The notes: generated by a model from the sequence alone, not told the origin. Positions 9,802 through 29,285 are shown, numbered from the stretch's first letter. The stretch is DNA of 64,000 nt from a virus (IMGVR_UViG_3300023174_000074:62809-126808), one strand, 5' to 3'. A program made the numbers and translations.

Positions 9802-9814
9802 ATTTAAGTTGTAA

Positions 9815-11627: not shown

Positions 11628-11634
11628 TGATCAT

Positions 11635-11694: not shown

Positions 11695-11914
11695 ATAAAT
11701 TGGGGAATATAAAAACAAAACAATATGGGATTTTTAACAAACATGATAAGCGCTACTATTAAGACAGCTCTTACACCTGTGGCTATAGTAAAAGATGTAG
11801 TAAGCATAGCTACTGGTGAAGAAGCAGATGCTACAAAGAACTTACTAAGTAGTGCAGCTGAAGATGTAGCCGACGCAGCAGACGAATTAGGAGACGGCGA
11901 ATTTCTTTAAACCT

Positions 11915-12577: not shown

Positions 12578-12591
12578 TTTATAAAGAACGT

Positions 12592-12623
12592 AAAAAAAGC
12601 CTAGTTTATGCTAGGCTTTTTTT
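12592..12623. terminator. Bidirectional intrinsic terminator
   Basis: A7-GCCTAG-TTTATG-CTAGGC-T7 between convergent genes. Confidence 0.8.
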
Positions 12624-12639
12624 ATGGCATTATTTACTG

Positions 12640-14049: not shown

Positions 14050-14305
14050 ATTTTTGTTTTAATTTTGAAATGTTAAATTTTATAGGGGCGTTAGCCTTCT
14101 TAAGTTCCCTCATAAATCTATCAACAACGTCAGCTGCTTTAGCTTTAGTACCTGGCTTAACAGATGGTTTGTCCCTTCTGATTGGGCTTGGTCTTGAAGG
14201 AGTTGGCTTGGTACTTGGAGCAGTACTTGGCTTTGTAGTTGGCTGGCTAGGAGCTGTTTGTGGCTTAGTTGCCAAAAACTCTTCTATTTTGGTAAAAACT
14301 TTCAT
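14039..14305 (-). CDS. Pro/Thr-rich small protein, putative virion protein
   Basis: MKVFTKIEEF, PTTKPSTAPSTKP; GATATATATC palindrome upstream. Confidence 0.55.
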   Translation of the reverse strand: MKVFTKIEEFLATKPQTAPSQPTTKPSTAPSTKPTPSRPSPIRRDKPSVKPGTKAKAADVVDRFMRELKKANAPIKFNISKLKQKYEF

Positions 14306-14365
14306 AGTTGTTTTTTAATTTAGATATATATCTTCATATAAAAAAAAAATATAAAATTATATCTT

Positions 14366-15940
14366 ATGATGAAATATAGTTTCCCAACATTTACAGAGAA
14401 ACAAGCTCTGATGGAAAATGTCCAAGCTGCTAAGGATTATCTTTTGAAGAGATATGCCCTGAAAAATAAGATTAAAACATCCGAAATAGATGACGAAACA
14501 AGAAAAAAGATCCTAGAAGATCCAAAATTTAAAGAGGTTAAGGATCTAACCGAGAAATCTCCGGGTTACACCCCAATGTTCGCAAAATTCAGATTTGATC
14601 AAAAAGCTCACATGGAAGAGTTAAAAGAGATTTTTGACAATCTAATGAAATATAAGCAAACCTTAGGACAGGATTTGTCTATGAACATTAACGATTACGC
14701 TAAAGTTGAGCCCACAGAAGATGATATCCGTCCAGGATATGAGGTTTTGGGTGATGATCTTAGAAATATCGAAAGAAAAAGAAAGCTTAAAAAACTATAT
14801 GCTGAGTTAACTCCTAGAATGAAAAAATCTTTCTCTAAGGCAACGGACAAGCAAATCAAGGAGCTTACTGAAATTGCAAATCAGCTTGAACTTATTAAAA
14901 AGAAGAAAGTTTTAGAAAGTCCAAGAGGTGATAAAAAAGAGTCAAGCGCATTTGAAGCTTTCTGCTGGACGCTTAAGAAATATGATGACACTACCACTTA
15001 TCCAGAGTACAGAGACGAAAAGGTTGCTTTTGCGGATCTTATTAGAGACTCATTAGAATTCGCTGAAGGTTGGAGTCAAGACGAGTCCGGATTACTTAAG
15101 AAGCTTAAAGATCTTGGTCCAATGGCAGGAATTCTTTATGCTAAGGACGGTTACATAGTGGAATCAGCTAGAACACCAGAAGCTCAAAGAGCAATATGTG
15201 CAGATACCAACTGGTGTATTAGAACAGATTCAACATTCTGGTCATATGGTGGTGGAAGAATACAGATCAACATCATCAATTCAAACGTTCCTATTACCGA
15301 TATCCACAGTTTAGTAGGAATAACTGTTAATCCTGACGGATCAATCCACACTGATGCTACCAGGCCTAATAGTAGACTAAGAGATAAGAACGGTAAACAG
15401 TACAGAACGCTAAAAGATGCTTTAGAAGGACTTGATTACCCTAAGGATCTAATCGACACCGTAATGGCTAAGTTCAAAATGGAGTGCGATATTAAAATCG
15501 CTCTTGAAAGATACTATAAAGAAGGGGTTGGTCTTACTATTAGAAACATTATAGAATCTCTTATAACGACATCGAAAGGTTTCTTATCTGGTGCTATGCC
15601 ACAGGAAGACTGGGAGAAGATCTCCGGATTGGTTGCTCAAATCATTTTTGAGGTTAAAAAAGATCTTAAGAAGAGCGATTTCATGAACGAATTCAAACAA
15701 TATGGTATTTTCAGTGAGGCAACATTAAATGTATTCGATAGACTTATCGGAGACGATTACACTAAAGCCGACATCGAAGATATATTAAAAGCAACAGAAA
15801 AAGGTATCGAAGAGATTAAGTACGTTTTAGAACTTAATTCAGAAGGAAGCCTTCCTCTAAAACCCGCTCAGGTTGAAATCATGAAAAATGTGGTTAAAGA
15901 AGAGCAAAACATAGCTAAAAGAATTAAATCTAAATTATAA
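14366..15940 (+). CDS. Hypothetical protein, putative virion protein
   Basis: 524 aa; TNWCI motif; late motif upstream. Confidence 0.65.
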   Translation: MMKYSFPTFTEKQALMENVQAAKDYLLKRYALKNKIKTSEIDDETRKKILEDPKFKEVKDLTEKSPGYTPMFAKFRFDQKAHMEELKEIFDNLMKYKQTLGQDLSMNINDYAKVEPTEDDIRPGYEVLGDDLRNIERKRKLKKLYAELTPRMKKSFSKATDKQIKELTEIANQLELIKKKKVLESPRGDKKESSAFEAFCWTLKKYDDTTTYPEYRDEKVAFADLIRDSLEFAEGWSQDESGLLKKLKDLGPMAGILYAKDGYIVESARTPEAQRAICADTNWCIRTDSTFWSYGGGRIQINIINSNVPITDIHSLVGITVNPDGSIHTDATRPNSRLRDKNGKQYRTLKDALEGLDYPKDLIDTVMAKFKMECDIKIALERYYKEGVGLTIRNIIESLITTSKGFLSGAMPQEDWEKISGLVAQIIFEVKKDLKKSDFMNEFKQYGIFSEATLNVFDRLIGDDYTKADIEDILKATEKGIEEIKYVLELNSEGSLPLKPAQVEIMKNVVKEEQNIAKRIKSKL

Positions 15941-15941
15941 T

Positions 15942-17243
15942 ATGGAAAAAGTTTCAAATTACGAAGAATTTATTAAAAATTCGGGGAAAGAAGAATCTAT
16001 AAAAAATTCGGATCAAGAAGAATTTATAGGTGAAGCCTATTGGAGTAGAAGCTGGCTTAATCCTCCAGGAAGAGAATTAATAGATGCTTTCGACGGAGAC
16101 CTTCCATCTGCAAGAGATCTTAAAAGAGGGTTATATGTAACCGTTCAGAGATTAGATGGTCAAAAGATCAGATTGGAGATCAGAGGAAGCTCAATGCCTA
16201 AAACTGCTATGTGGGTTAACGAGGATGGAAATTACTGTTGTGAACACTACTCAAGTAAACCAGGATTAGAAACATACGGATTTGCTAGTTTCGATACACC
16301 ACAAGAACTTTTCAGACACATCTGGCTTAGAATAGTTAAGAACGGTATCCCTGCTTCACTTATAAGCAAGAGAGACGTTAACGAGAAGGTAGATTTTGAT
16401 AAAATGTACCCAGCAGGTGAAGAACTTACTCTTGATCAAATTAGAGAAAGACTTAAACCTATGATGGGAGGAGATCAATTAGCTCATCCTAATAACACCG
16501 AACTACTTCAATTGGCAACAATGCAAAGGCTAATCGAGCTTGATTTCATAGGAAAGATTGAAAGATATTCTAGTAATAGTAAAGCAGTTAACCTGGTAAG
16601 GGATATTTCTAAAGGTGGTAAAGTTAAATACTACTTCTATCTAAGAGCATTAGAAAGAGCTAAAGAACTTTATGGAGATCTAATTAAAGATCTAGTAGGT
16701 GGAGATGCACACGGACAAATGATTCAGAAAACTGACTACGAAACTTGGACAGTTACTAACACACAAAGAATGCCAATCAACTCAGTTAACTTTAGAACCG
16801 GAGAAAACACTTTAAGATGTAGATTAGAGGACATTGAAATGTTCAACGCGATTTTTATTGCTATCGCAAAAAGAACTTTTAAAAGAGCAAAGGGTAAATC
16901 AATAAACGAGAAATTGGTTATACCTGGATGGAGAGCATCAGCAGAAGATAAAGAGACGATGGAAGAGCTTAACGATCTTCTTGCAAACTATTTTCACGAT
17001 GCAGCTGCGGAAGTAAGTCAAACTGTTTTCTTTGATAAAGAACATGACACGACAGCAGTACATGAGAATGCTAAGGCAATTCTAATTAAGTACCTTTTAA
17101 AAGAAGGTTCAATGTCAGTTAAGAGTCTAATCACAGGAAACGATAGAATGTCTCAATATGTTGATATGGCAACTAGAATCGAAGATATTGACGGATTAAC
17201 TAAGAGATTGATCAATGTTTCTAGAGCATTAAGATACGTATAA
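15942..17243 (+). CDS. Hypothetical protein, putative virion protein
   Basis: 433 aa; N-terminal 9-aa repeats (EEFIKNSGK/EESIKNSDQ/EEFI). Confidence 0.65.
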   Translation: MEKVSNYEEFIKNSGKEESIKNSDQEEFIGEAYWSRSWLNPPGRELIDAFDGDLPSARDLKRGLYVTVQRLDGQKIRLEIRGSSMPKTAMWVNEDGNYCCEHYSSKPGLETYGFASFDTPQELFRHIWLRIVKNGIPASLISKRDVNEKVDFDKMYPAGEELTLDQIRERLKPMMGGDQLAHPNNTELLQLATMQRLIELDFIGKIERYSSNSKAVNLVRDISKGGKVKYYFYLRALERAKELYGDLIKDLVGGDAHGQMIQKTDYETWTVTNTQRMPINSVNFRTGENTLRCRLEDIEMFNAIFIAIAKRTFKRAKGKSINEKLVIPGWRASAEDKETMEELNDLLANYFHDAAAEVSQTVFFDKEHDTTAVHENAKAILIKYLLKEGSMSVKSLITGNDRMSQYVDMATRIEDIDGLTKRLINVSRALRYV

Positions 17244-17244
17244 T

Positions 17245-17496
17245 ATGAAACAACTTAAACCGATAACAAGCTTTATAGCAGAGAGAAAAAGGCAGGACTT
17301 TTGCAAAGGATGCGGAAAAAGCATAGAGGACCAGGAAAAAGAATGTCCAACCTGTGGAGCATTTCCACAAAAGGCTTATCATGAGAGGGCAGCAGTTAAA
17401 ACTCTAGGTATTTCTAAATGGCTTCAGAACTCGCCTGTTATGCAGCCAAATCAAAAACTAAGTGAGAATACAATTACCAGACTTAGAGAATTCTAA
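17245..17496 (+). CDS. Zinc-ribbon protein
   Basis: CKGC...CPTC. Confidence 0.6.
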   Translation: MKQLKPITSFIAERKRQDFCKGCGKSIEDQEKECPTCGAFPQKAYHERAAVKTLGISKWLQNSPVMQPNQKLSENTITRLREF

Positions 17497-17518
17497 GAAA
17501 TAAATTTTAACATAATTA

Positions 17519-17547
17519 AAATCCAGGCAGCAGTCTGGATTTTTTTT
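17519..17547 (+). terminator. Intrinsic terminator
   Basis: ATCCAGGC-AGCA-GTCTGGAT followed by T tract. Confidence 0.7.
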
Positions 17548-18170
17548 GGAAAACATTTTTTTTATCCGTAGCCAGATATTACTTTTGCTTCAAAGAAGCT
17601 ATGTATTATGAACATAAAAATATGGGACTCTAGAAATGAGCAATGGCTTGAGCCAATGTCAATTTATTTTGGCAAGGAAATACCATCCGGAAAATAAATG
17701 CAGTTAAACCCGGAACTGATCCTCTTTCCGATGGTTGGTATGATATCCAAGGGGAAGATTTAAAAAAAGTTGCCATGATTGGGAATTTTGAGTATAATGT
17801 AGAATTGCTAAGTATTAACAAAGGAAGGAAAAATTAAAAAGAGAAAGATGAAAATAAATTGTATACAGAGAAAAAAGCCGGGGAACTTTTGATAGCAATG
17901 AATAGTTTAAAATCTTAAGAGAATGAAAACACTAACCCAGATAACTAAATTAAGACCTGAATTCAAATTCGGAGACATGACAATGATTGACTGGTTCGAG
18001 GTATCTTCAGGTCATGGATACTGCTGTATAAGGAGCGGGCTTAGGCATGCTGACGGTGAAACAAAATCCCCATACTATTATGAAAATTGTATCGGCGGAA
18101 AAAATGCTAAAAAAGAAGCATTAACTAAATTTAATCAATGGTACGAATCTCTTAATAAAGCAAGACTGAT

Positions 18171-18401
18171 ATGAAAACTATAATCCACGTAAACCAACAC
18201 AACATCAAGGTCAATGCTAAGGGTGAAAATAAACCTGTTATCACATGCAAGACATATAAGACAAACACTTATGCAAACGAAGTCACGATATATGGACAGG
18301 ATGGACTCCCGGCTGCTAGGATAATCTACTCAAAAGATAAACCGCTCTCATGTGGTGCCAAAGTTTGGATAGAAACTTATGGCAAAGTGGAGACTAAATA
18401 A
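18171..18401 (+). CDS. Hypothetical phage protein
   Basis: IHVNQHNIK...YSKDKPLSCGAKVWIET. Confidence 0.65.
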   Translation: MKTIIHVNQHNIKVNAKGENKPVITCKTYKTNTYANEVTIYGQDGLPAARIIYSKDKPLSCGAKVWIETYGKVETK

Positions 18402-18405
18402 GAAG

Positions 18406-19008
18406 ATGAACAATTTTGACCTCATAAGAAAAATGTTAAGCTTCCCTGACGAGAACGCTTTCTACTTTCTTCAAATACTTAAAAGAAGAAAGGACAATCC
18501 TGATCTAGGGAAGGATATGATCCATATTGCGGACTACTATATCTATAGTCTGGAACAGTTCGATGGATTAAGGCAGAGAATTATACATCAATGCGACACA
18601 GAGAATGCCAGAGCATACTTTAGACTTAATCGTAGGGACTCTAAGAAGGTCGCTATGCAAGTTTTAAAGAGAACGGTAGATCATATTATGTCTGAAAATT
18701 ATCGTGCAGTTAAGAACGCCTTTGCGTCCTGTGCGGGTGAATTTAATTCAGATCCTGATAAGACTTGGATAGTTGATATAGATAATATTTCTATCGACAC
18801 TTTCAATCATTCTGGGGAACAAAAGAAAATTAGACAACTAGTATATGATCTTCAGGTTGACACTGGAAAGGAACCGATCATGAACATTATACCCACCAAA
18901 GGAGGTGTTCATATCATAACCAGACCATTCAATTTGGATAAATTTAAAACACAATACCCGGAAATAGATGTTCACCGGGATAATCCGACGATTTTATATT
19001 GCCCATGA
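18406..19008 (+). CDS. Hypothetical phage protein (possible AEP/primpol-like fold)
   Basis: FLQILKRRKDNP, WIVDID, PTKGGVHIITRPF. Confidence 0.55.
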   Translation: MNNFDLIRKMLSFPDENAFYFLQILKRRKDNPDLGKDMIHIADYYIYSLEQFDGLRQRIIHQCDTENARAYFRLNRRDSKKVAMQVLKRTVDHIMSENYRAVKNAFASCAGEFNSDPDKTWIVDIDNISIDTFNHSGEQKKIRQLVYDLQVDTGKEPIMNIIPTKGGVHIITRPFNLDKFKTQYPEIDVHRDNPTILYCP

Positions 19009-20450
19009 GTAAAGTTAAAAAAAAACCAATAATAGATTTAGAATCTCTTAACACGGATCAGAAGACAGCTTTTGAAGATTTAAGGGATTTCGTTTGTGAT
19101 AAGGGAGATGATAGCGTCTATGTGCTAAAAGGTTGGGCAGGAACAGGAAAGACCTATTGTGTGAGTGTGCTTGTCAGATATGTGCTCGAGGTGATACACC
19201 CGACACATAATTGGTATAGAATAGCAGTTACAGGACCAACCAATAAATCAGTGAGGGTTATTAAAAAAACCAGCGGGCTGAAAAATCCTAGGGTTTCGTT
19301 TCAAACCATTCATAAAATGCTTGGTCTAACCGAAAGGATAACCAAAGAAGGTGTACAGGAATTTGTTAATCAAGGGGATTTCCAACCAAAGATAAAGACG
19401 GTAAAGCTACTTATTATCGACGAGGTTTCGATGCTGAATGATGATCTGTTTCAAGAAGTATTAAAATACAGAGACAAGATAAAAATTATCTGCATGGGAG
19501 ATCCTGCACAGATTCCCCCTGTAGGTAAACCCGATTGTATTCCTTTTAGAGAAGAGCTTGCTGCAGGCTATAGAATTAAAACTCTTAGTCTAAAACAGAT
19601 CATGCGTCAGAAGAAAGATAATGCTATTATCGAATCATCTGTGGCTATTAGATCTGAATTAGGTAGAGCTAAAAATCCAGTTGAACCCGTTACAAAGCTA
19701 AATGAGAAAGGTGAAGGAATAGAATTTCTTAATCTCAATATTCCTGAGACAAGAAAAGGATTCTCAGAAATACTGAGACGATATTTTGTCACCGATGAAT
19801 TTAAAAAAGATTCTGAGTATGCAAAGATCATTGCATGGAGAAATAAAACTGTTGCAACCATGAATGATGTTATTCGTAAAGTTATCTACGGAGACGAAGC
19901 ATTAGGATCAAAGATATTGGTTGGGGAAAAACTAATCGCAAACAATCCGATCATTCAAGGTGAGTCAATAGTTCTGAACACCAACGACGAATTCAGTGTG
20001 GATAGTTTTACTATCGGTAGCGATGATCTTAGATATCACATATCAGATCAACCCGATGCCGAACCATTTCCAATAACACTAAAGTATTATGAAACTGTTG
20101 TTAGCTATCTTGATGATGAGGATGAAACGGTAAGGGTTAACATACAAATTCTACACGAGGACAGCGAGATGGATTTTAAAAAGCTGGCTAATATTCTAAA
20201 GCTTAGAGCTATAGAAAAGAAAGGCAAAGATAAAAGCTGGATAGTGTACTACAACTTTCTTAGAAAGTATGCTGATGTGAATTATGCTTATTGCACTAGC
20301 GCACACAAATCACAGGGAAGCACATACAATACAACATTTGTTCTGGAGGATGACATAAATCAAAATTTTAATATAATTGAAAAAAATAGAATACTTTATA
20401 CCTCCTATACTAGAGCCAGTAGAAAGCTGTATGTACTTAGAAGATTTTAG
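19005..20450 (+). CDS. Dda/RecD-like SF1 DNA helicase
   Basis: GWAGTGKT, PTNK, TIHK, IIDEVSM, GDPAQIPPV, HKSQGSTY, YTRA. Confidence 0.9.
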   Translation: MSKVKKKPIIDLESLNTDQKTAFEDLRDFVCDKGDDSVYVLKGWAGTGKTYCVSVLVRYVLEVIHPTHNWYRIAVTGPTNKSVRVIKKTSGLKNPRVSFQTIHKMLGLTERITKEGVQEFVNQGDFQPKIKTVKLLIIDEVSMLNDDLFQEVLKYRDKIKIICMGDPAQIPPVGKPDCIPFREELAAGYRIKTLSLKQIMRQKKDNAIIESSVAIRSELGRAKNPVEPVTKLNEKGEGIEFLNLNIPETRKGFSEILRRYFVTDEFKKDSEYAKIIAWRNKTVATMNDVIRKVIYGDEALGSKILVGEKLIANNPIIQGESIVLNTNDEFSVDSFTIGSDDLRYHISDQPDAEPFPITLKYYETVVSYLDDEDETVRVNIQILHEDSEMDFKKLANILKLRAIEKKGKDKSWIVYYNFLRKYADVNYAYCTSAHKSQGSTYNTTFVLEDDINQNFNIIEKNRILYTSYTRASRKLYVLRRF

Positions 20451-21616
20451 AATCTACCCAAACTCCATCCGTCACTAATATATTTATCGATTTCTTGCAC
20501 ATCAACCCTAACTGATTTTTTTGATTTATTTATCCATTTTTTACCCCTTGATGAATTTCCCATGCCTTTTCGACTTTCGTCAGTGATATTTAACTTATCT
20601 TTATCAACGATTCTTCCCAAACACCATCCCTGACATATCCATTTTTCTAGTTGGTCAGCCTTAACCTTTTTATTTTTATCAAAGCAATTATTTATCCAGA
20701 TGGTATTTTTATGAACATTGCTCATTTTTAATTTAGCATCCGTTGATCTTTTCATCCCCTTACTTACGTGTCTCAATTCTCCAGATTCCAATCTAGGATC
20801 ATCTATTTTAACCCTCATTCCGTTACCGCTAACATCTTTAACTGGTATTGTTCCCTTAGTAACACCCTGTAATTCACCGGATATAAATCGAGGATCATTT
20901 CGATCCAATATTAAATTTTTGCCTCCATCCTTAACAACTACTTTATGTGTAAATTTATGAATTAGCTCACCACTTTTTAATCTTGGATCGTCGGTTTTTA
21001 TTCTTATGTTATTACCATTTTTATCATTTACACATACTGTTCCTTTTATTATACCTGTCATTTTTTCATTTTTGAATTCGTCCTTATTAACATAACGAAT
21101 AATTCCATTTTTATCCCTTCCTACAGCATTGTTACAATGTATACTTTTTAGATCACCATTAAGATAATTAGGATCATCGGTTGAAACCTGTTGGGTCTTT
21201 CCCTCCCCGTCCTTAACAGTAACATATCCTGTTGATATAAATATTAATTCTCCGCTTAAGTACTCTGGATTATTAACTGAGGTCTGAAACGTATCCCCTT
21301 TTTTATTTCTAACCGTGACAACTCCACAGCTTCCCCCTCCACCACCACCTAAAGTGATATTATATACATTTTCATTTAATATAAATTCGTTACTTACTAG
21401 TTCTTTTTCTTTTTCTAACATTTTATTTCTACTATCAAAATCATACAATATAATTTTTTTAAATTTCTCTATTCCGTATTTTTTAATAGCTAGTTTAATT
21501 AATTTACCTGATCCCATATAGTTATCATTAATATTATATGTGGAATGACACCCAATATAGATTTTACTATTTACTAGATTTAATATTAAATAAATCAGAT
21601 GATGTTTTTTCGCCAT
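20447..21616 (-). CDS. GIY-YIG (Seg-like) homing endonuclease
   Basis: LIYLILNLVNSKIYIGCH, YMGSG, E, YN; repeated DDPRLxSGEL modules. Confidence 0.85.
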   Translation of the reverse strand: MAKKHHLIYLILNLVNSKIYIGCHSTYNINDNYMGSGKLIKLAIKKYGIEKFKKIILYDFDSRNKMLEKEKELVSNEFILNENVYNITLGGGGGGSCGVVTVRNKKGDTFQTSVNNPEYLSGELIFISTGYVTVKDGEGKTQQVSTDDPNYLNGDLKSIHCNNAVGRDKNGIIRYVNKDEFKNEKMTGIIKGTVCVNDKNGNNIRIKTDDPRLKSGELIHKFTHKVVVKDGGKNLILDRNDPRFISGELQGVTKGTIPVKDVSGNGMRVKIDDPRLESGELRHVSKGMKRSTDAKLKMSNVHKNTIWINNCFDKNKKVKADQLEKWICQGWCLGRIVDKDKLNITDESRKGMGNSSRGKKWINKSKKSVRVDVQEIDKYISDGWSLGRF

Positions 21617-21651: not shown

Positions 21652-21713
21652 AGAATCGAATATACAGCCTACACCAGGCGAGTAAGAAAGTTTACGTCAT
21701 GAGAAGATTCTAG
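21652..21713 (+). pseudogene. Orphan duplicate of the helicase 3' end
   Basis: Reads RIEYTAYTR-SKKVYVMRRF* versus helicase end RILYTSYTRASRKLYVLRRF*. Confidence 0.75.
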
Positions 21714-22504
21714 TAGCTTTCTCTGATACGGATAAACTTGCAGTCAAGAAATTCCTCGATAGCCTTTTGTCTTAGTCTATCCTTTTCTTTTAATTCGTCA
21801 TTTATATAGTGGTATTTTTCGTCCCATTCATAAACTGTGTTATTTTCTTTATCATATCCATCTACCCAATATCCAAGTTCTTTAACGTGAAATTCACACC
21901 CGTTTTCTGCGTGTTGAATTCTAATCCCGGTTTCTTCCATTAGCTTATTAAAGTACTCGCAGCCTTTTTTGCTATATGGAGGATGGAATTTTTTATCGAT
22001 TGCTTTAAGCTTATCAATAAAAATTACTCTTAGCTTTTTCCTAGTCTCCTCGTTATGGTGTTTCCCGAATTTAGTATCTCTTAATGAATTTTCCCAATTA
22101 GTTCTATGCTCATCACTCATCTTCTTTCCTTTATTCCATGGCGTGCTTGATCCCCATTCGGTATCTTTAATCCCATTCTTCCAATTGCTCTTATATTCTT
22201 CACTCATTGGCTTACCCTTATTCCAAGGTTCATATCCTTCCTTGTGTACATAAGCCCAGCCCACAGCATTTGGTTGAACTTTCTTGCTGCAGCTTTTACC
22301 GCAATGTTCTCTGTATCCCTTAGCTATATTATTAAATGAAGCTTCCCTATCACACTGCTTGCATTTTATCTTCTCCCCATTTAAAACGTATTGATCATAA
22401 TAATCCTTGGTATCTATTTTATGGTTCTGTTTTATGTGACTTCCGAATCCGTTATTTGACTTTGTTTCGAATCCGCATATCTTACATTTCTTGATATCTT
22501 CCAT
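21710..22504 (-). CDS. Putative homing endonuclease (Zn finger, PWNKG/NUMOD3 repeats, PD-(D/E)xK-like domain)
   Basis: CKIC..H..H, PWNKGK twice, YWVDGYDKENNTVYEWDEKYH, FIRIRE. Confidence 0.7.
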   Translation of the reverse strand: MEDIKKCKICGFETKSNNGFGSHIKQNHKIDTKDYYDQYVLNGEKIKCKQCDREASFNNIAKGYREHCGKSCSKKVQPNAVGWAYVHKEGYEPWNKGKPMSEEYKSNWKNGIKDTEWGSSTPWNKGKKMSDEHRTNWENSLRDTKFGKHHNEETRKKLRVIFIDKLKAIDKKFHPPYSKKGCEYFNKLMEETGIRIQHAENGCEFHVKELGYWVDGYDKENNTVYEWDEKYHYINDELKEKDRLRQKAIEEFLDCKFIRIRESY

Positions 22505-22540: not shown

Positions 22541-22571
22541 TTTTTATTCCCGGGTCTGATTCTTATATTTG
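22541..22571 (+). promoter_or_regulatory. Promoter upstream of the cassette array (CG-N11-TATATTTG)
   Basis: TTTTTATTCCCG-GGTCTGATTCT-TATATTTG. Confidence 0.65.
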
Positions 22572-22772
22572 TAATATAAAATATGGAATATGGAAAAAAT
22601 AGAAACATTAAAAGAAGAACTAATTCATTTAGTAGAAACGGCAATTCAATTCGGTGTTGATTTTGTTGATGTTGTAAAGGTCAAACCATCTGAGAGAAAA
22701 AGGACCGCAAACCGGATGGTTGAAAACACAATCAAAGATTTAGAAAACCCAAAACAAATTAATGATTGAACC

Positions 22773-22859
22773 TAACGGTTGGGTATATGTGAAGTACCTT
22801 ACCACAAAACTTAAAAATTAAATAGAAACTTTAGGAGGTATTTCACATATACCTTGTTA
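22773..22859. repeat. attC-like site 1
   Basis: TAACGGTT; arms GGTATATGTGAAGTACCT / AGGTATTTCACATATACC; TTGTTA. Confidence 0.8.
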
Positions 22860-22874
22860 TAACTCGTTTTAATT

Positions 22875-23117
22875 ATGACTCGATTTGAAAGAAAAAACAG
22901 AACTGAAATAGTTTATAAAGGATTCGGTGGTATTACCGATGCTTTTGACGATATGTATAAACAACTTTGGAGAATAAATGATGAAGAATATAATTATTTA
23001 TGTGAAACACTTACTGATGAAGAATTGAGTGATATTACGCCAGAATTTAAAACTATATCTCAAATAAAAAAAGCGATAACAATAGTAAATACGGCTCTTT
23101 CTAAAAATGAGTTATAA
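22875..23117 (+). CDS. Cassette 1 hypothetical protein
   Basis: Stop codon is the TAA of the next TAAC. Confidence 0.65.
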   Translation: MTRFERKNRTEIVYKGFGGITDAFDDMYKQLWRINDEEYNYLCETLTDEELSDITPEFKTISQIKKAITIVNTALSKNEL

Positions 23118-23203
23118 CGGTTGAGTGTATGTGTAGGTTTTTTGAAATTAAACTTTAATATATACTAAAAACTAAATAAAAAACTTACATATACACCTTG
23201 TTA
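23115..23203. repeat. attC-like site 2
   Basis: Arms GTGTATGTGTAGGTTTTT / AAAAACTTACATATACAC. Confidence 0.8.
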
Positions 23204-23257
23204 TGTGCCGTTTTTTCTTATGGACTTCAAATTATTAATTTTTAAAATAAACAAAAT

Positions 23258-24325
23258 ATGAATTTAGCAAGTGTACAAAAAGTAATCAAATTAACCCCAA
23301 TTGAGGGTGCAGATTTGATAGAAACAGCAACCGTATTAGGTTGGGAAATTGTAGTAAAAAAAGGCGAATACAAAGTGGGTGACTTATGTAGTTACATTCA
23401 GATTGATACAGTAGTTCCCGAACTACCCGAATATGAATTTTTAAGGGAACGGAAATTTAGAGTAAGAACAATCAAATTGCGTAAACAAATTTCGCAGGGG
23501 CTTGTAGTTCCTTTACCTAATGGTAAATGGAAAGAAGGCGATGATATTACAGAGGTTTTGGGAGTAAAGAAATACGAGAAGCCAGACAATAACCCAGAAC
23601 GCTATGAGAAGCCAAGAATGTCTAAAAAATGGTATAAGAAATGGATTTACTTGTTTAAATATAATTTCCTTTTCAAGTTGTTCCCAAAATTACAAAGGTT
23701 AAGCCGTTCTCCATTCCCTAAAAATTTGGTATCAATTACCGATGAAGAAAGAATACAAAATATACCACATGTATTACAACAATACGCTGGTAAATTATTT
23801 GTAGTAAGCTATAAACTTGATGGTAGTAGTATTACAATAATTCATTCAAAGGTTTTTGGTAAAAGTAAGTTTAGAATTTGCAGTAGAAGATTTGAATTGC
23901 ACGACAAAAAAAATGATTGGTACAAAGTATTTACTGATACTAATTTTAAATATGAAATTGCAAAACTTGTAAAGCACTTTAAAACTGATGATATAATTGT
24001 ACAAGGCGAAGCAATAGGCAAATTTAACGGCAACCACCACAACTTACAAAAAGAGCAAATTAGGTTGTTTAATATCAATGTAAACGGCAAAAGATTAAAC
24101 CAACAGGAATTTATAAAAACTTGTTTGGCAAATAATATTCCACATTGCCCAATGTATAAGGAAATTGTTTTAAATCACTCTTTACCCGAAATATTGGCTT
24201 TGTCTGAAATTAAAGACGTGATTAATCCATCAGTAGATGTTGAGGGTTTAGTTTGGCGTTGCGTTGAAGATAATTTAAGTTTCAAAGTGATAAACAATAA
24301 ATATCTTCTTAAAAACAATGAGTAA
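23258..24325 (+). CDS. Cassette 2: RNA ligase, Rnl2/DRB0094-like
   Basis: LASVQKV...IEGADLIE, SQGL, TDEERIQN, KLDGSS, QGE, EGLV, SFKVINNKYLLK. Confidence 0.85.
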   Translation: MNLASVQKVIKLTPIEGADLIETATVLGWEIVVKKGEYKVGDLCSYIQIDTVVPELPEYEFLRERKFRVRTIKLRKQISQGLVVPLPNGKWKEGDDITEVLGVKKYEKPDNNPERYEKPRMSKKWYKKWIYLFKYNFLFKLFPKLQRLSRSPFPKNLVSITDEERIQNIPHVLQQYAGKLFVVSYKLDGSSITIIHSKVFGKSKFRICSRRFELHDKKNDWYKVFTDTNFKYEIAKLVKHFKTDDIIVQGEAIGKFNGNHHNLQKEQIRLFNINVNGKRLNQQEFIKTCLANNIPHCPMYKEIVLNHSLPEILALSEIKDVINPSVDVEGLVWRCVEDNLSFKVINNKYLLKNNE

Positions 24326-24349
24326 CGGGGTGTTTCCTAAAATGGCACA

Positions 24350-24397
24350 TAACGGTTGAGTGTAAAAAATCGTTTTAATGTTTTTTACACTTTGTTA
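24350..24397. repeat. attC-like site 3 (shortest, 48 nt)
   Basis: Arms GTGTAAAAAA / TTTTTTACAC. Confidence 0.75.
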
Positions 24398-24425
24398 TAA
24401 GTATGTAAAACAAAAATTATACAAT

Positions 24426-24593
24426 ATGAAAGAAAAAATTGAAAATAGGTTAAAAGAGTTATATGATGAATACAAACATGTAACTGATAAAGATAGAGTT
24501 TGGATTAAACAAACAGGTGGTTTAACAAGAAGAGAACGAATTGAAAAATGTAAAATTCTAATAGAAGAGTTAGAAACATTATTAAATTCATAA
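24426..24593 (+). CDS. Cassette 3 hypothetical protein
   Basis: Likely start MKEKIE at 24426. Confidence 0.55.
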   Translation: MKEKIENRLKELYDEYKHVTDKDRVWIKQTGGLTRRERIEKCKILIEELETLLNS

Positions 24594-24611
24594 TTTTTGT
24601 TTTATTACTTA

Positions 24612-24728
24612 TAACGGTCACAGATATATGTAGTTGTTTAACACAAAACTTAAATAATATGAATAAAGATAAAAATTTAGAACAAAACTTGGATAAGAGT
24701 AATAAAAAATTACATATATCTGATGTTA
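24612..24728. repeat. attC-like site 4
   Basis: Arms CAGATATATGTA / TACATATATCTG. Confidence 0.8.
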
Positions 24729-24931
24729 GTTGTAGTATTGATGATATTAAAAAATGGGTTGATAGTGAAATTGGTTACTATGACGAATGTGATACTGTTG
24801 AAGATGCGATTGATGATATGTTACATGATTTCAAAACACATTTTTTAAATATTGATTACACAAAGAAATTTGATAAGGAAAACGAACTTATAAAATACTT
24901 CAAAAGTGAGTGGGAACAATATTACAACTAA
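24659..24931 (+). CDS. Cassette 4 hypothetical protein
   Basis: ATG within hairpin loop; stop is TAA of TAAC. Confidence 0.65.
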   Translation: MNKDKNLEQNLDKSNKKLHISDVSCSIDDIKKWVDSEIGYYDECDTVEDAIDDMLHDFKTHFLNIDYTKKFDKENELIKYFKSEWEQYYN

Positions 24932-25054
24932 CGGTTTGCAGATAGGCGAAGGCAAGGATTTAGAAAACAAAAATTTAACTTTAAAATAGAATTTAATATG
25001 AAAAAGAAATCATCATTTTACCACAACACCCTTGCTTTTGCTTATGTGCTGTTA
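24929..25054. repeat. attC-like site 5
   Basis: Arms GCAGATAGGCGAAGGCAAGG / CCTTGCTTTTGCTTATGTGC. Confidence 0.8.
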
Positions 25055-25183
25055 GTTGCAGTTTTTTTGTGGGTGGCAATTTCAAGCACCATTCAAAGGT
25101 TCAAATGTGCTAAACTTACTGAAACAGAAATATTTATTAGAATACCAAAGTCTTTTGTGTGCGATTGGGCAAATTGCAACTAA
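24998..25183 (+). CDS. Cassette 5 small membrane protein
   Basis: One hydrophobic segment; ATG in loop; stop at TAAC. Confidence 0.6.
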   Translation: MKKKSSFYHNTLAFAYVLLVAVFLWVAISSTIQRFKCAKLTETEIFIRIPKSFVCDWANCN

Positions 25184-25305
25184 CGGTTGATGCTTGGTGC
25201 AGTTGCGAAATTGAACGATAAACTTAATTAAAAAACGGAAACATGAATTGGATTAAAAATATTTTTAGAAAACGGAAACAAGCAATTGCATCCAAGCATT
25301 TGTTA
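25181..25305. repeat. attC-like site 6
   Basis: Arms ATGCTTGGTGCAGTTGC / GCAATTGCATCCAAGCAT. Confidence 0.8.
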
Positions 25306-25503
25306 GCGGCTGGGCTGGAGTTTAGACGAACATCTCTTGGTCAAGCTGCATTTATTCCGAAAGGCACAACAAGTAATTATGCTGATAAAATAATGTTCCC
25401 CGACAATTGGAGTAGAGCAGAATTTAGAGCAATGGCAGATTACATGGATGCGTTTCCTGACTGCACATTATTTTCAGATGGAAGTGGTAAGCCTTGCCGC
25501 TAA
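25243..25503 (+). CDS. Cassette 6 hypothetical protein
   Basis: ATG in loop; stop at TAAC. Confidence 0.65.
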   Translation: MNWIKNIFRKRKQAIASKHLLAAGLEFRRTSLGQAAFIPKGTTSNYADKIMFPDNWSRAEFRAMADYMDAFPDCTLFSDGSGKPCR

Positions 25504-25625
25504 CGGTTGGGTATAAATGAAGTGCCGATTTTGAAAAACAAATGTTCAATTAAAAACAAAAGATAAAATGGAAAACAAAAGTTCAATTACAGACGAAAGT
25601 AAGGCATTGCAACAAGCCGATGTTA
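25501..25625. repeat. attC-like site 7 (mismatched arms)
   Basis: TAACGGTT and ATGTTA borders intact; only GTGCC/GGCAT pair well. Confidence 0.65.
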
Positions 25626-25813
25626 GCAGCAGTGCGAGGTATATAATTGTTGATGAAAGCGTTTCAGCACATTGTTGTTTTGAATGCACAATAATTGATA
25701 CCGCAGCAGGTAAAGAAGCTTATGGTGATTACTGGAAGCGTTCAATGTGCGAAACATTCGACAGGGCAGAAGCTGAAATTATATGTGATGCGCTCAATAA
25801 GCATTTCTGCTAA
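25568..25813 (+). CDS. Cassette 7 hypothetical protein
   Basis: SVSAHCCFECTIID; ATG in loop; stop at TAAC. Confidence 0.65.
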   Translation: MENKSSITDESKALQQADVSSSARYIIVDESVSAHCCFECTIIDTAAGKEAYGDYWKRSMCETFDRAEAEIICDALNKHFC

Positions 25814-25898
25814 CGATTTCGGGCTTGGCGAAGTGCCGCTACTCGAAACTTGAATTTTAGCACTAACTGTCCTGCGGCATTTTGCCAAACCCGTGTTA
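25811..25898. repeat. attC-like site 8
   Basis: Arms CGGGCTTGGCGAAGTGCCGC / GCGGCATTTTGCCAAACCCG. Confidence 0.8.
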
Positions 25899-25946
25899 TG
25901 GGATAGTTTTAAAAACCTTTTAGGGTGGGCATTTAAAAACGAAATA

Positions 25947-26405
25947 ATGATAATAGCGATTGATTTTGATGGAACTTGCGTAACACACGAATTTCCAAAA
26001 GTGGGCAAAGACATTGGTGCTGTGCCTGTATTAAAAGAGTTGGTTAAAAATAACCACCAATTAGTTTTGTTTACAATGCGAAGCGACATAGTTAATCCAA
26101 CGGGAGAGGACAATGAATTGCACCTTGAAAGCGGAAACTATTTAACTGATGCAATTGATTGGTTTAAACAAAACGAAATACCACTTTACGGAATACAAAC
26201 CAACCCGATACAGCACACTTGGACTACAAGCCCGAAAGCATACGCACAACTTTACATTGATGATGCTGCTTTAGGATGCCCACTTTTGGTTGACATTGTA
26301 AAAGATGGTGACGAAAGTATTAAGCAAGTTGGCAGACCTTATGTTAATTGGGAAAAGGTAAAAGAAATGCTAATTGATAAAGGGATTATTGATGATGAAG
26401 ACTAA
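25947..26405 (+). CDS. Cassette 8: HAD-family phosphatase (BT0820-like)
   Basis: IAIDFDGT, LFTMR, PKAYAQLYIDD. Confidence 0.75.
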   Translation: MIIAIDFDGTCVTHEFPKVGKDIGAVPVLKELVKNNHQLVLFTMRSDIVNPTGEDNELHLESGNYLTDAIDWFKQNEIPLYGIQTNPIQHTWTTSPKAYAQLYIDDAALGCPLLVDIVKDGDESIKQVGRPYVNWEKVKEMLIDKGIIDDED

Positions 26406-26440
26406 CCCGTGCGGTGGGAAAAGGTTTTTAAAATTTCCCA

Positions 26441-26567
26441 TAACGTTTTGCAGCTATGCCCAGTTGGGCAATTTTAAAGACAAAATAATCAACTTAAAAT
26501 AAAGTAAATATGGAACACGAAAATATTAACAAACAAGAAGATGCCCAATTGGGTATAGGTGGTGTTA
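26441..26567. repeat. attC-like site 9
   Basis: Arms CAGCTATGCCCAGTTGGGCA / TGCCCAATTGGGTATAGGTG. Confidence 0.8.
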
Positions 26568-26722
26568 GCATCAGTGCCTTAACGGAATGGCTTAAAAGCG
26601 AATCTGTTTATACAGCATTGAGGTACGCATCAAAGAACCCATCAAATAGCGGTATGGATAATTGTGAAGATAAAAGTTATTTACATCTATACAATTTAAT
26701 TTGTCAGATTCGTAGGCATTGA
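26510..26722 (+). CDS. Cassette 9 hypothetical protein
   Basis: ATG in loop; ends 4 nt before TAAC. Confidence 0.6.
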   Translation: MEHENINKQEDAQLGIGGVSISALTEWLKSESVYTALRYASKNPSNSGMDNCEDKSYLHLYNLICQIRRH

Positions 26723-26725
26723 TGC

Positions 26726-26805
26726 TAACGGTTGCGGATATGAGAAGGGAAAAAATACCAATGAAAAATAAACAAGAATTTTTTACTTTCTTATATCCGT
26801 TGTTA
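26726..26805. repeat. attC-like site 10
   Basis: Arms CGGATATGAGAAGGGAAAAAAT / ATTTTTTACTTTCTTATATCCG. Confidence 0.8.
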
Positions 26806-26871
26806 TCGGTCTGGTTTGGTTTCAATTTTTGTGCTGAGGGTTTAGAATTTCATCATTAAATAAATATACAA

Positions 26872-27135
26872 ATGGAAAACAATAATTGCATAGTAGAGAA
26901 AAAATTTCTGTTCTGGAAATGGAAAGCGGTGGAGCATCATTACAAGATGCACCGAATAAGTAAATTCATGGATTGCTCAACATCATTCCATGTTGATTGG
27001 GTATGTAAGTGCGGGGCAAGGTGGGAACAGAAATTTGTTGAACAGGACGAATTATTGTTGAAAGGAATATCAACTGAAATTCTAAATAAGATTGACGGTT
27101 GGCATTCGCACTACTGCGGGAAGGAAAAAAATTGA
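26872..27135 (+). CDS. Cassette 10 hypothetical protein
   Basis: 87 aa ORF between sites 10 and 11. Confidence 0.6.
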   Translation: MENNNCIVEKKFLFWKWKAVEHHYKMHRISKFMDCSTSFHVDWVCKCGARWEQKFVEQDELLLKGISTEILNKIDGWHSHYCGKEKN

Positions 27136-27150
27136 AACCAAACTTGCCGA

Positions 27151-27276
27151 TAACGTTCCAAGTATTGCCGATGGTGGGGCATTACACCACCAAAGTTCAA
27201 TTAACAAACTAAAGTTCAAAATATGCACACAGATTCAAAAAAGCACGAAACCCCCACTATTGGCAATACTTTGTTA
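27151..27276. repeat. attC-like site 11
   Basis: Arms AAGTATTGCCGATGGTGGGG / CCCCACTATTGGCAATACTT. Confidence 0.8.
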
Positions 27277-27513
27277 TATGCTGTTAAAAATGGGCAGTTG
27301 AAAAGGTGGTTTTACGAGTTTAAACACGGACACCCATTTCTACTTGACGAAGAAGCTACTATAATTGTTTCTACAAGATTAAGTGATAAAAGTGCTTCTT
27401 GGATGAATGATGAACAGATTAAAGAACTCGTAAAACTTAGAGTGAAAGCAATGTATAAAAAGAAATTTCCAAATGCAAAACGGTGGTCGTTGCCCATTTT
27501 TAATTGCATATAA
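27223..27513 (+). CDS. Cassette 11 hypothetical protein
   Basis: ATG in loop; stop at TAAC. Confidence 0.65.
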   Translation: MHTDSKKHETPTIGNTLLYAVKNGQLKRWFYEFKHGHPFLLDEEATIIVSTRLSDKSASWMNDEQIKELVKLRVKAMYKKKFPNAKRWSLPIFNCI

Positions 27514-27637
27514 CGGTTGAGGATTTATTTAGTTGCGAATAAAAAATTACAAAATATGATAACAGAAGAACAGTTGAAAAAAGCAGAAAAAGTTATTGCT
27601 GACTACAAAGCCGAGCAATTGAATAAATCCTATGTTA
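27511..27637. repeat. attC-like site 12
   Basis: Arms AGGATTTATTTAGTTGC / GCAATTGAATAAATCCT. Confidence 0.8.
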
Positions 27638-27792
27638 TAAAATCGTTTCCGAGCGATGATGAAATACATAAGGAATCGTTGAGGGTGTGCAGGATAGAGG
27701 CAGAGTTTGTGCAAGGGGTAGCGTGGTGCTATCACGATAAAGGAGCAAAATGGATGATGGAAGAACTAAAGAAGCGAGGAAATGTTTTATAA
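27556..27792 (+). CDS. Cassette 12 hypothetical protein
   Basis: Start MITEEQ in loop; stop at TAAC. Confidence 0.65.
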   Translation: MITEEQLKKAEKVIADYKAEQLNKSYVIKSFPSDDEIHKESLRVCRIEAEFVQGVAWCYHDKGAKWMMEELKKRGNVL

Positions 27793-27878
27793 CGGTTTTG
27801 GTGTATGAGAAGGTTTGCTTAGATAAATTTTCAAATTACAACTGAACTTAACAGCAAACTTTCTTATACACCTTGTTA
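27790..27878. repeat. attC-like site 13
   Basis: Arms GGTGTATGAGAAGGTTTGCT / AGCAAACTTTCTTATACACC. Confidence 0.8.
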
Positions 27879-27942
27879 TACACAGTGCGGTTTATTTGGT
27901 AGAAACTTTAATTAAAAAACAAATATAAAAAAATTAAAAATT

Positions 27943-28320
27943 ATGAAAAATTATTTATTGACAGATTTTAATACTGAAAGATGGAAAGGTATTAATATAG
28001 AAAGTGCAGAAACACAAGTAGAAAAATTGAATGAAAAAATTAATAAAATTGGATGTTTATTTGGTGAAATAGGGAATCCAGAAACATTTGAGATTTCGTT
28101 ATCAAGAGCATCACATTCAATTAAAAATTTAACTTTTGTAGATGGTAAAGTTTATGGTGATGTTGAATTTTTGAATAATGATAACGGAAAACAAGCAGAC
28201 AATTTTATTAATAATATGAATTGTATATTTGGAATAAGAAGCACAGGAACATCAGAACAATATAAAGATGGTGAAATAGTTATCCATTCAATTTTTACTT
28301 GGGATGTAATCAATGACTAA
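27943..28320 (+). CDS. Cassette 13: degenerate T4 gp21-like prohead protease homolog
   Basis: FGEIGNP, ISLSRASHSIKNL, VYGDVEFL, NGK, FGIRSTG resemble gp21 GELxHP/VSH/GxSSRG. Confidence 0.55.
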   Translation: MKNYLLTDFNTERWKGINIESAETQVEKLNEKINKIGCLFGEIGNPETFEISLSRASHSIKNLTFVDGKVYGDVEFLNNDNGKQADNFINNMNCIFGIRSTGTSEQYKDGEIVIHSIFTWDVIND

Positions 28321-28367
28321 TAATTTTTAATTTTTATTAGATGAACTTGATTAGAAGTAGAAATGTA

Positions 28368-28400
28368 GCATTGTGTATAACTATTATATATAAGTAAGTG
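28368..28400. other. Putative attI-like site
   Basis: Last TAAC (28378-28381) closes cassette 13, has no following hairpin and abuts the recombinase start. Confidence 0.5.
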
Positions 28401-29228
28401 TACCATAAACCATTTAATATCAACACTTTGAATCAAAAAATTATAAAGATTTGTGAGGAAAAGTTTATATATTTAAACTACTCACCAAGAACAAAAGACA
28501 ATTATATGTGTCATATTAAAGATTTTCTTAATACTCTTAATGACAAACAGATAATTCATTGTAGTTCCAAAGATTTTCAATCATATCTAGATAATTATCA
28601 ATTCACCTCTGTTTCTCAACAAAACCAGGTTATTAACGCTATTAGATTTCTGTATAAGTACGGACTTGATAAGAAATACGATAAGGTATCGTTTAAAAGA
28701 CCAAAATCGGAAAAGAAGCTACCCAGAGTTATTGATGGTGAATTTATAAAAGAAAAACTAAACAAGATTGGTAATCTGAAACACAAAGCAATCTTAACAC
28801 TAACCTATTCAGTTGGATTAAGGGTGTCTGAAATAGTTAATCTAAAGATTGAAGATATTGACTCAAAAAGGATGCTTATACACATCAAAAACGCAAAAGG
28901 CAGAAAGGATAGGATAGTTCCGCTGTCATTAACTGTTTTAACTTTGCTAAGAGAATATTTTAAAGAGTATAAACCTTCAGATTATCTTTTTAATGGGCAA
29001 AATTCTTCATTGTATTCAATACGAAGCTGTCAGCAAATTTATAAAAAATACATTGATGACGGGTCATCAATACATACACTAAGGCATTCCTCTTTCACCA
29101 ACCTATTAGAATCAGGAACTGATCTAAGGATTATTCAAAAAATAGCAGGTCATTCCAGCTCTAAAACAACAGAAATTTACACACACGTCTCAAATAGTCT
29201 TTTAAGTAGGATAAAACTTCCAATTTAA
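28398..29228 (+). CDS. Tyrosine recombinase, integron-integrase-like (start uncertain)
   Basis: YSPRTKDNY, SQQNQVINAIRFLY, KKLPRV, GLRVSE, KGRKDR, HTLRH, GHSS, TEIYTHV. Confidence 0.92.
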   Translation: MYHKPFNINTLNQKIIKICEEKFIYLNYSPRTKDNYMCHIKDFLNTLNDKQIIHCSSKDFQSYLDNYQFTSVSQQNQVINAIRFLYKYGLDKKYDKVSFKRPKSEKKLPRVIDGEFIKEKLNKIGNLKHKAILTLTYSVGLRVSEIVNLKIEDIDSKRMLIHIKNAKGRKDRIVPLSLTVLTLLREYFKEYKPSDYLFNGQNSSLYSIRSCQQIYKKYIDDGSSIHTLRHSSFTNLLESGTDLRIIQKIAGHSSSKTTEIYTHVSNSLLSRIKLPI

Positions 29229-29285
29229 TTTTTTTACCCCGAAAATTTTACTTAGCATTGCGGTAGAACAATTAAAATACCAACT

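Follow-up and report, generated by a model that had tools for sequence, protein, structure and literature searches.

A probable integron-like cassette array with reversed gene polarity beside a Xer-like recombinase in a large uncultured phage

Integrons are defined by the integrase IntI and its special domain, and they are seen as devices of bacteria (and archaea) in which reading of the cassettes starts on the attI side. Integrons of reverse orientation have also been published, and their integrases are described, in the accessible part of that source, as carrying the IntI domain (10.1101/2022.02.06.479319). The present analysis concerns an array of hairpins and small genes in a viral sequence of 64,000 nucleotides (nt), IMGVR_UViG_3300023174_000074:62809-126808, which is the last 64 kb of a 126.8-kb IMG/VR record (CheckV completeness estimate 46%) and is called the window below. 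The array ends beside the gene of a Xer-like tyrosine recombinase, and the two together very probably form an integron-like, site-specific cassette platform on a large uncultured phage, each cassette consisting of a hairpin and a gene on the strand that folds. In the literature within reach, which leaves out subscription-only papers and supplementary tables, no account was found of recombinase-linked hairpin cassette arrays in large phages, and none of reversed cassette polarity.

Thirteen sites that start with TAACG and end with GTTA lie between 22773 and 27878, all on the plus strand and separating plus-strand open reading frames (ORFs). They share a build of a 4-bp core, usually a G·T pair, a bulge of about 3 nt in the 5' arm and a stem of 17-20 bp, and their lengths fall into three classes spaced by about 40 nt (about 48, 86-90 and 124-128 nt), both in the window and family-wide. 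The window contains 43 copies of TAACGNT (24.0 +/- 5.5 in shuffled sequence), 13 of the 43 being on the plus strand within the 5 kb of the array, and a hairpin scan of the reversed (uncomplemented) window gave 2 matches in 64 kb versus 11 in the array. The hairpin of cassette 7 (-4.3 (constrained) or -6.4 kcal/mol) was missed by both scans and passed the following junction test 4/4.

Each GTTA is followed by a tetranucleotide that is exactly the reverse complement of the one preceding the next TAAC, in 13 of 13 cases, including the TAAC at 28378 that closes the array, where the TACA after the GTTA of cassette 13 complements the preceding TGTA; complementarity of a site with its own junction reached 4/4 at just one of the 13. 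For the family, 80 related viral loci were fetched and five duplicates were dropped (plus the GenBank record L001), leaving 75 and the window; L022 and L074 were also dropped as duplicates from the later counts of cassette ORFs and site positions, which cover 73 loci. Successive junctions matched 3/3 in 190 of 261 family pairs, whereas same or preceding junctions did so in 9% and random ones in 8%. The outer stem that results has a median length of 11 bp when the partner is cognate and 2 bp when it is random, and it has a recurrent T·G at position 7. Such complementarity is expected if the units circularise through a crossover in the core, as in integrons, and alone it does not say which core is cut.

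The boundaries of the mobile unit were visible in an all-against-all blastn comparison of the loci, which gave 8484 high-scoring segment pairs (HSPs), reciprocal and related hits included, so that these are not independent events. Left ends of the HSPs cluster on the T of TAAC (633 at 0 and 424 at -1), and almost none fall at the 3' GTTA. Among the 1888 incidences of an HSP covering a hairpin, 73 are sharp at TAAC with at least 100 nt rightward and 54 more have a left overhang of 4-30 nt, against 0 (+1) with the mirror pattern. Whole units were also found to have moved: 27150-27518 of the window matches 7535-7901 of L052 from TAAC to TAAC at 83% identity, and a 960-nt cassette with three ORFs, 99.9% identical in L005, L022 and L023, abuts the attI-like site in the latter two and is internal in L005, about 2.4 kb and six further junctions from that site. 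Of 184 validated cassette ORFs, 71 start inside their own hairpin, and the last gene of the array has no hairpin 3' of it. In a comparison with the public runs that contain more than a small share of the query, based on contigs in all runs and excluding joints with sides of 20-50 nt, contigs of the three independent runs X4, X7 and X3 follow the window from 23115, 25811 and 28375 onwards, respectively, each with unrelated DNA before; stretches of X7 without cover (e.g. 25172-25633 and 26789-27481) are not evidence of absence.

These are four independent lines: the HSP left ends, the HSP asymmetry, the whole-unit moves, and the ORF starts inside hairpins together with the hairpin-free end of the array. 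They place the crossover in the 5' TAAC and make the unit a hairpin with its downstream gene. An earlier reading of the window from its sequence alone (the sequence-only reading) had proposed just this unit, and had suggested asking whether hairpins travel with the downstream gene in related arrays, which the sharp HSP edges at TAAC show that they do. It had further put the crossover at TAA^C; the break does map within TAAC, and the exact bond is not resolvable from sequence because TAAC is invariant on both partners.

At the recombinase end the array stops at a junction of another kind. In about 45 related loci an attI-like site adjoins the 5' end of the recombinase gene: left of the last TAAC the sequences are unrelated, and to its right stand a conserved TAT(T/A/C)ATATATA and the recombinase gene. 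The last TAAC is replaced by CAAC in two loci, and homology between the window and many loci begins at 28376-28379. No hairpin was found at TAAC 28378 in two scans. An attI near 28380, a final TAAC free of a hairpin and an integrase pointing away from the array, all anticipated from the sequence alone, are thus supported. Across the 73 loci, the sequence upstream of the recombinase contains 348 sites (0.84/kb) and that downstream of it 35 (0.06/kb, the control level, with 29 in the control). Upstream sequence of 1 kb or more is available for 55 loci, 50 of which have two or more sites; the largest array numbers 19 sites. Turnover is illustrated by L028, whose recombinase is 95% identical and whose left flank carries a syntenic helicase, yet which has no cassette in common with the window.

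The recombinase gene starts about 50 nt after TAAC 28378. Its product contains PF00589 (1.8e-33, 116 bits) and the SAM-like PF13495, and the R...HxxR...H...Y catalytic motifs are visible in an alignment to XerA. The XerA profile NF040815 is matched end to end in one stretch at 176.3 bits (cut-off 220), and the scores are likewise below the cut-offs for XerC (142 vs 335), XerD (141 vs 330) and the integron integrases (TIGR02249, 145.3 vs 265; NF011946, 93.7 vs 435 bits). The best match among sequences of known structure is XerA (4A8E, 7.6e-33), and in comparison with IntI4 (2A3V) the region of the IntI insertion, near patch III, spans 79 aa in IntI4 and 31 aa in the phage protein. Lacking this insertion, the protein is a predicted simple Xer-like enzyme and not an IntI. 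The best matches among GenBank phage proteins are integrases of flavobacterial (Cellulophaga, Polaribacter) phages, at 37-38% identity.

The two strands of the hairpins are not equivalent. Arm-only folds of the window sites contain 30 G(5')·T(3') wobbles versus 2 T·G, with at least one at every site, and the plus strand is the more stable at 13/13 sites with RNA parameters and 12/13 with DNA parameters, the minus strand being slightly better folded only at site 8 (summed DNA folding energy -152.4 kcal/mol for plus vs -124.8 for minus). In 395 family sites there are 1040 wobbles on the plus strand against 32 A·C or C·A 1x1 mismatches, so that the minus strand forms a systematically worse hairpin. 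The longer ORF lies on the wobble-favoured strand, which is that of the recombinase, in 13/13 window cassettes and 180/184 family cassettes; the family units have a median of 371 nt and their ORFs a median of 84 aa (184 validated). These results agree with the sequence-only reading, according to which the arm mismatches are mostly G-T on the plus strand, the minus strand reads TAACA...CGTTA (as it does), both strands should be compared for folding energy, and all 13 genes are inverted.

The stems themselves are conserved as structures. In a MAFFT alignment of 58 non-identical mid-length hairpins, from sites picked by the folding scan, 16 of 18 consensus stem pairs show changes on both sides, the core being invariant in 58/58; 97.7% of cells are paired against 71.6% after shuffling, and covariation scores 0.644, compared with 0.156 for the shuffled and 0.075-0.147 for the slid control. 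Near-invariant G·T pairs occupy columns 5/92 (55/58) and 25/78 (56/58), while neighbouring pairs covary.

Since the strand that folds is the sense strand as well, a bias in wobbles does not by itself distinguish single-stranded DNA from mRNA. The same cassette system could therefore recombine its minus strand or double-stranded DNA, the plus-strand wobbles reflecting a role of the hairpin in mRNA (for example in processing, stability or translation control around start codons). Every wobble would also be a G·U in the transcript, and the ORF starts inside hairpins would suit such a role; the conserved A·C mismatches of the minus strand could moreover be recognition features, and the IntI domain, which reads extrahelical bases, is absent from the enzyme. 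Two arguments, both inferences, favour folding of the plus strand as DNA, and they make this alternative unlikely. The first is a contrast with bacterial relatives, for which 80 loci were fetched; 13 had at least three sites and seven of those, from genomes and MAGs, were examined, namely arrays in Desulfitobacterium (L137), Paludibacter (L098) and Flavobacterium (L134 and L143), and in L130, L139 and L157. Their recombinases are 42-50% identical to the phage enzyme and also lack the IntI insertion, and the TAAC/GTTA cores, the junction complementarity and a TATATA-rich attI-like junction are as in the phage. In these seven, wobbles number 73 on the minus strand versus 14 on the plus strand and the minus strand is the more stable at 29/34 sites, and 26/27 cassette ORFs are on the plus strand, opposite the wobble-favoured one; the wobble-rich strand is there non-coding, and its bias cannot be an mRNA feature. 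Over all 80 bacterial loci, the site counts (76 plus, 94 minus) were not above the reversed-sequence control (85).

The second argument is geometrical. The strand that a tyrosine recombinase cleaves is the one leading, in 5' to 3' direction, out of the binding arm and into the spacer. With the crossover in the left core, the cut would fall in the 5' arm of the plus-strand hairpin, as with IntI on the attC bottom strand, whereas on the minus strand it would fall in the 3' arm, contrary to this rule. A double-stranded site, for its part, would have no need of covarying inner and outer stems.

On the preferred reading, that of a plus-strand cassette platform, a cassette starts inside the TAAC core, continues with an imperfect hairpin (about 48, 88 or 126 nt) and one gene, and ends at the next TAAC. 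Once excised as a circle, its 3' end would pair with the sequence just past the hairpin, completing a long stem around the TAAC/GTTA core. The plus strand would fold as single-stranded DNA. A recombinase monomer on the outer stem would then cut the 5' arm within TAAC, in the manner of IntI on the attC bottom strand, and one strand would be exchanged with attI, so that new cassettes would enter beside the recombinase. With coding and folding on one strand, all the genes point toward attI and the recombinase, and their transcription would have to come by read-through from the distal end of the array or start at signals within it. In its most extended form, the proposal is that a Xer-like lineage without the IntI domain runs true single-strand cassette exchange in phages that range in size from about 76 kb to over 360 kb, with the recombinogenic strand rewired to the sense strand and with counter-defence or accessory cargo loaded beside the recombinase and read from the opposite end. 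Transcription itself could expose the folding strand, which is the non-template one; this is put forward tentatively, at a little under an even chance.

Several observations weigh against these interpretations. All of the related loci are metagenomic contigs, and 50,697 GenBank phage records held no DNA match to 27780-28420. Seventy-one of the 261 successive junction pairs fail the 3/3 test, some of them through sites missed by the scan. Within the array the outer stem is a hybrid, the flanks of the same junction pairing 3/3 in 9% of cases, which would make poor excision substrates. The recombinase has no IntI-specific domain, and the literature, as far as it is accessible, describes that domain as necessary for attC recombination. 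The plus strand is the more stable at 390/397 family sites, a figure inflated by the plus-strand folding scan with which the sites were picked, and 4/184 cassettes have the longer ORF on the minus strand. With the folding strand also coding, the G·T bias fits mRNA structure equally well, and motif searches found no recurrent promoter-like signal inside the cassettes. Finally, 3/55 loci (L048, L059 and L066) have no upstream sites, and no second recombinase of the family was found in the records of L027, L061 and L079, where extra same-strand clusters were observed 1-10 kb downstream of the recombinase (15544-20376, 8947-11608 and 11633-17739, respectively).

It might also be supposed that there is no site-specific system at all, the hairpins being terminators or repeats, the gene content changing by homologous or illegitimate recombination, and the neighbouring integrase serving lysogeny. 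The related flavobacterial phage integrases are indeed read as lysogeny markers (PMC8776804, accessible part), identical 48-nt hairpins could support homologous exchange or misassembly, and a gathering-threshold Rfam scan of the whole window gave 0 matches. The breakpoints, however, all fall in a core of 4 nt, the ends of a cassette complement the flank of its own hairpin, the array abuts the recombinase in 50/55 loci, the stems covary with only the core conserved, and cassettes with unlike hairpins are exchanged too, which together leave this explanation very improbable. Least credible of all is an integron of classical polarity, in which attI would lie near 22570, every gene would precede an attC of its own, the plus strand would be exchanged at G^TTA and the recombinase would stand at the far end: genes followed by hairpins do look like textbook cassettes and a promoter-like box does stand at the left end, but the hairpins travel with downstream and not upstream DNA and reach into the starts of the ORFs that follow, there is neither a hairpin behind the last gene nor a cassette ahead of the first hairpin, no GTTA partner exists upstream of 22590, and conservation begins at TAAC 28378.

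Table 1. Features of the array and its ends in the window, and the arrays of four bacterial relatives (positions in the named locus).
Feature	Position	Strand	Remarks
Putative promoter/leader	22541-22589	+	TATATTTG at 22564-22571, 18 nt before ATG 22590; far end from attI
Leftmost ORF (59 aa)	22590-22769	+	No upstream hairpin; not a complete cassette; no Pfam/PHROG match
Cassette 1	22773-23114	+	Hairpin 22773-22859; ORF 22875-23117 (80 aa); no family match
Cassette 2	23115-24349	+	Hairpin 23115-23203; ORF 23258-24325 (355 aa), RNA ligase-like
Cassette 3	24350-24611	+	Short 48-nt hairpin 24350-24397; ORF end 24593
Cassette 4	24612-24928	+	Hairpin 24612-24728; ORF 24659-24931, start in hairpin loop
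Cassette 5	24929-25180	+	Hairpin 24929-25054; ORF 24998-25183, start in loop
Cassette 6	25181-25500	+	Hairpin 25181-25305; ORF 25243-25503, start in loop
Cassette 7	25501-25810	+	Weakest hairpin 25501-25625; ORF 25568-25813; phrog_19733, function unknown
Cassette 8	25811-26440	+	Hairpin 25811-25898; ORF 25893-26405 (170 aa); phrog_1238, 6.5e-29
Cassette 9	26441-26725	+	Hairpin 26441-26567; ORF 26510-26722, start in loop
Cassette 10	26726-27150	+	Hairpin 26726-26805; ORF 26872-27135
Cassette 11	27151-27510	+	Hairpin 27151-27276; ORF 27223-27513
Cassette 12	27511-27789	+	Hairpin 27511-27637; ORF 27517/27556-27792
Cassette 13, adjoins attI-like site	27790-28377	+	Hairpin 27790-27878; ORF 27943-28320 (125 aa); weak phrog_207
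attI-like junction	28378-28427	+	TAAC then conserved TATTATATATAA, no hairpin
Tyrosine recombinase, Xer-like (276 aa)	28398-29228	+	ORF from GTG 28398; probable start TTG 28428
Bacterial array, L137	8969-16329		Desulfitobacterium
Bacterial array, L098	8979-11908		Paludibacter
Bacterial array, L134	8921-14436		Flavobacterium
Bacterial array, L143	8890-11049		Flavobacterium

Just four of the window cassettes have a family match (2, 7, 8 and, weakly, 13), the ORF of cassette 2 matching PF21189 and PF09414 as well as the RNA ligase family phrog_968 (4.6e-59); a separate Pfam scan of 10 window ORFs gave a match for none of them. A scan of 150 of the 171 distinct family cassette ORFs of at least 50 aa found 17 Pfam families with 1-3 members each, about nine in ten ORFs being without a family. 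Five ORFs match DNA methyltransferase families, with agreement from PHROGs, and one matches the Thoeris inhibitor Tad6 (4.6e-41); single members were found of two ADP-ribosyltransferase families (ART-PolyVal and Arr-ms), GNAT, an exonuclease and YopX. That the cassettes serve in anti-defence or in accessory functions is no more than a reasonable guess from these matches. Given methyltransferases and a Thoeris inhibitor among many small proteins of unknown function, the arrays may be a rich source of phage counter-defence genes.

How the cassettes might be expressed is less apparent from motifs. All 13 ORFs point toward attI, so that a Pc promoter on the attI side cannot drive the cassette genes, and the Pc-type expression from the attI/intI end of integrons does not hold here. 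The box TATATTTG at the far end matches TAnnTTTG, the Bacteroidota -7 consensus, and it is the only box of the -7 type before a gene. In the window, TANNTTTG is not enriched (64 vs 84 expected), a scan for sigma-70 promoter-like sequences gave 29 vs 38 expected and one for terminator-like sequences 6 vs 3.7, and AAACTTWAA occurs 13 times vs 6.5 expected, five of these within the array or next to it. In the upstream sequences of 177 cassette ORFs no positional signal was found other than an A-rich leader without a Shine-Dalgarno sequence. This leader, together with the Cellulophaga and Polaribacter phage relatives of the recombinase, suggests that the host of the phage is probably a member of the Bacteroidota. 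The motif TTTTTTACCCCGAAA, which follows the recombinase gene in the window (29229-29245) and stands after the helicase and before the array leader in L028 (7443-7460), may be a phage promoter or regulatory element.

Some individual sites and cassettes deserve mention. The window sites with the downstream start codon in the loop (4, 5, 6 and 9) are all of the long class, a tally made for the window only. The 48-nt hairpin type of cassette 3 recurs five times in L005 and once in L028. That of cassette 13 is found at no fewer than 22 sites in other loci with different cargo (L003, L004, L016, L036, L067, L072 and others), and the hairpin (27790-27878) with its matching 3' end (28344-28377) is near-identical across many phages and often adjacent to attI, which suggests a preferred or template recombination site that receives cargo, or the most active type of site. 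The leftmost ORF is probably a chimeric remnant to judge by its two ends, since by eye its first codons match a 15-codon leader ORF of L028 (7513-7560), which runs into the first TAAC, and its last 25 nt or so with the TAAC resemble the end of a cassette that is internal in L005 (1631-1816).

The genes of the window are nearly all on the plus strand. Among them are one for a PIF1/UvrD-like helicase and two each of the homing-endonuclease-like and RNA ligase-like kinds. The homing-endonuclease-like genes lie on the minus strand between the helicase gene and the array (20447-21616 and 21710-22504; GIY-YIG/SegE-like and NUMOD3-containing), and they look like insertions because the array leader directly follows the helicase in the syntenic L028. 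Two tandem paralogous genes at 40862-42408 consist of repeats of about 60 nt that encode a leucine-rich-type motif (...NxLTSLEGAPQTV...F.C). A second cluster of TAACGGT, at 41200-42204, is accounted for by these repeats and was rejected as further sites, being an unrelated protein repeat, and so was a hairpin at 59960-60011, an ordinary terminator-like stem with a T run. Upstream of the integrase of Polaribacter phage Freya_10 the scan found no array; by eye, one hairpin-plus-gene beside that integrase (L001, 3780-4150) resembles site 9 of the window. The records of Freya_1 to Freya_10 (GenBank MT732463-MT732472) differ in length by up to 4.9 kb and in integrase start from 83 to 4180, which puts most of the length difference upstream of the integrase.

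The system works like an integron and fails two defining tests of one, the IntI domain and a gene before attC on the non-folding strand. A recombinase free of that domain, tied to arrays that obey the cassette logic of integrons, brings into question whether the domain is necessary for integron-type recombination, and offers a testable candidate for a simpler or independent solution. The reversed gene polarity also breaks the textbook link between order of insertion and expression, and places recombination structure and mRNA structure on one strand. If the proposal is true, integron-type recombination can do without the IntI domain, and the defence-cassette banks of bacteria have their mirror image in phages.

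Among the described systems, the CALINs of phages (clusters of attC sites lacking integron integrases; Qi et al., 2023, PMC9892861) resemble the array in having attC-type sites, in occurring as small clusters in virulent phages and in carrying DNA methyltransferases; as presented in the accessible text, they differ in having two to a few sites and no adjacent recombinase, in an assumed canonical polarity and in having been tested with IntI1. That text, with the supplementary tables of 17 phage CALINs left aside, contains no related recombinase-linked arrays of up to 19 sites. Xer/XerA dimer resolvases share with the phage enzyme a simple two-domain tyrosine recombinase of the same length and are its best match, but they act on a single dif-like site, whereas the phage enzyme falls below the family cut-off, is phage-borne and is linked to a hairpin array. 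Cury et al. (2016, PMC4889954), in the part accessible, reported such enzymes in only a few cases, with fewer than three attC sites nearby, and judged them not to be IntI; the phage family is a counter-example to that finding in scale, not in name.

Reverse-orientation integrons (Spirochaetota, Archaea) and the bacterial relatives described above resemble the phage system in that recombinase and cassette genes are co-directional, and differ in that the array lies 3' of the recombinase, the gene precedes the hairpin and the folding strand is non-coding. The bacterial relatives without the IntI domain, each with a TAAC...GTTA array of canonical polarity downstream of its recombinase and an attI-like junction at a lone GTTA, look like a wider class of integron-like systems. 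In three of them (L137, L134 and L143) the lone GTTA stands some 60-170 nt past the end of the recombinase gene and its next 5-6 nt complement the bases that precede the first hairpin, and the predicted attI there is 3' of the recombinase, with cassettes of gene then hairpin.

Classical integrons, whether of class 1 or the chromosomal type of Vibrio, are alike in most of their architecture. Their tyrosine recombinase also has its 5' end facing attI, and the order array, attI, recombinase is the same in the frame of the folding strand. The cassettes are tandem and mostly of a single gene, the hairpins are imperfect, with invariant ...AAC / GTT... cores and variable, covarying stems, and crossover in the core gives circularly complementary cassette ends. 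The phage system differs in an enzyme without the IntI insertion, an outer stem about 11 bp longer, G·T pairs at fixed positions and a phage as carrier. The order expected of an IntI integron, an ORF then its attC with the ORF opposite the folding strand, is replaced by a hairpin 5' of the gene and ORFs on the folding strand. The phage clade thus keeps the classical arrangement of attI and recombinase with its ORFs on the other strand of the cassette, and reversed polarity is a fair description of it.

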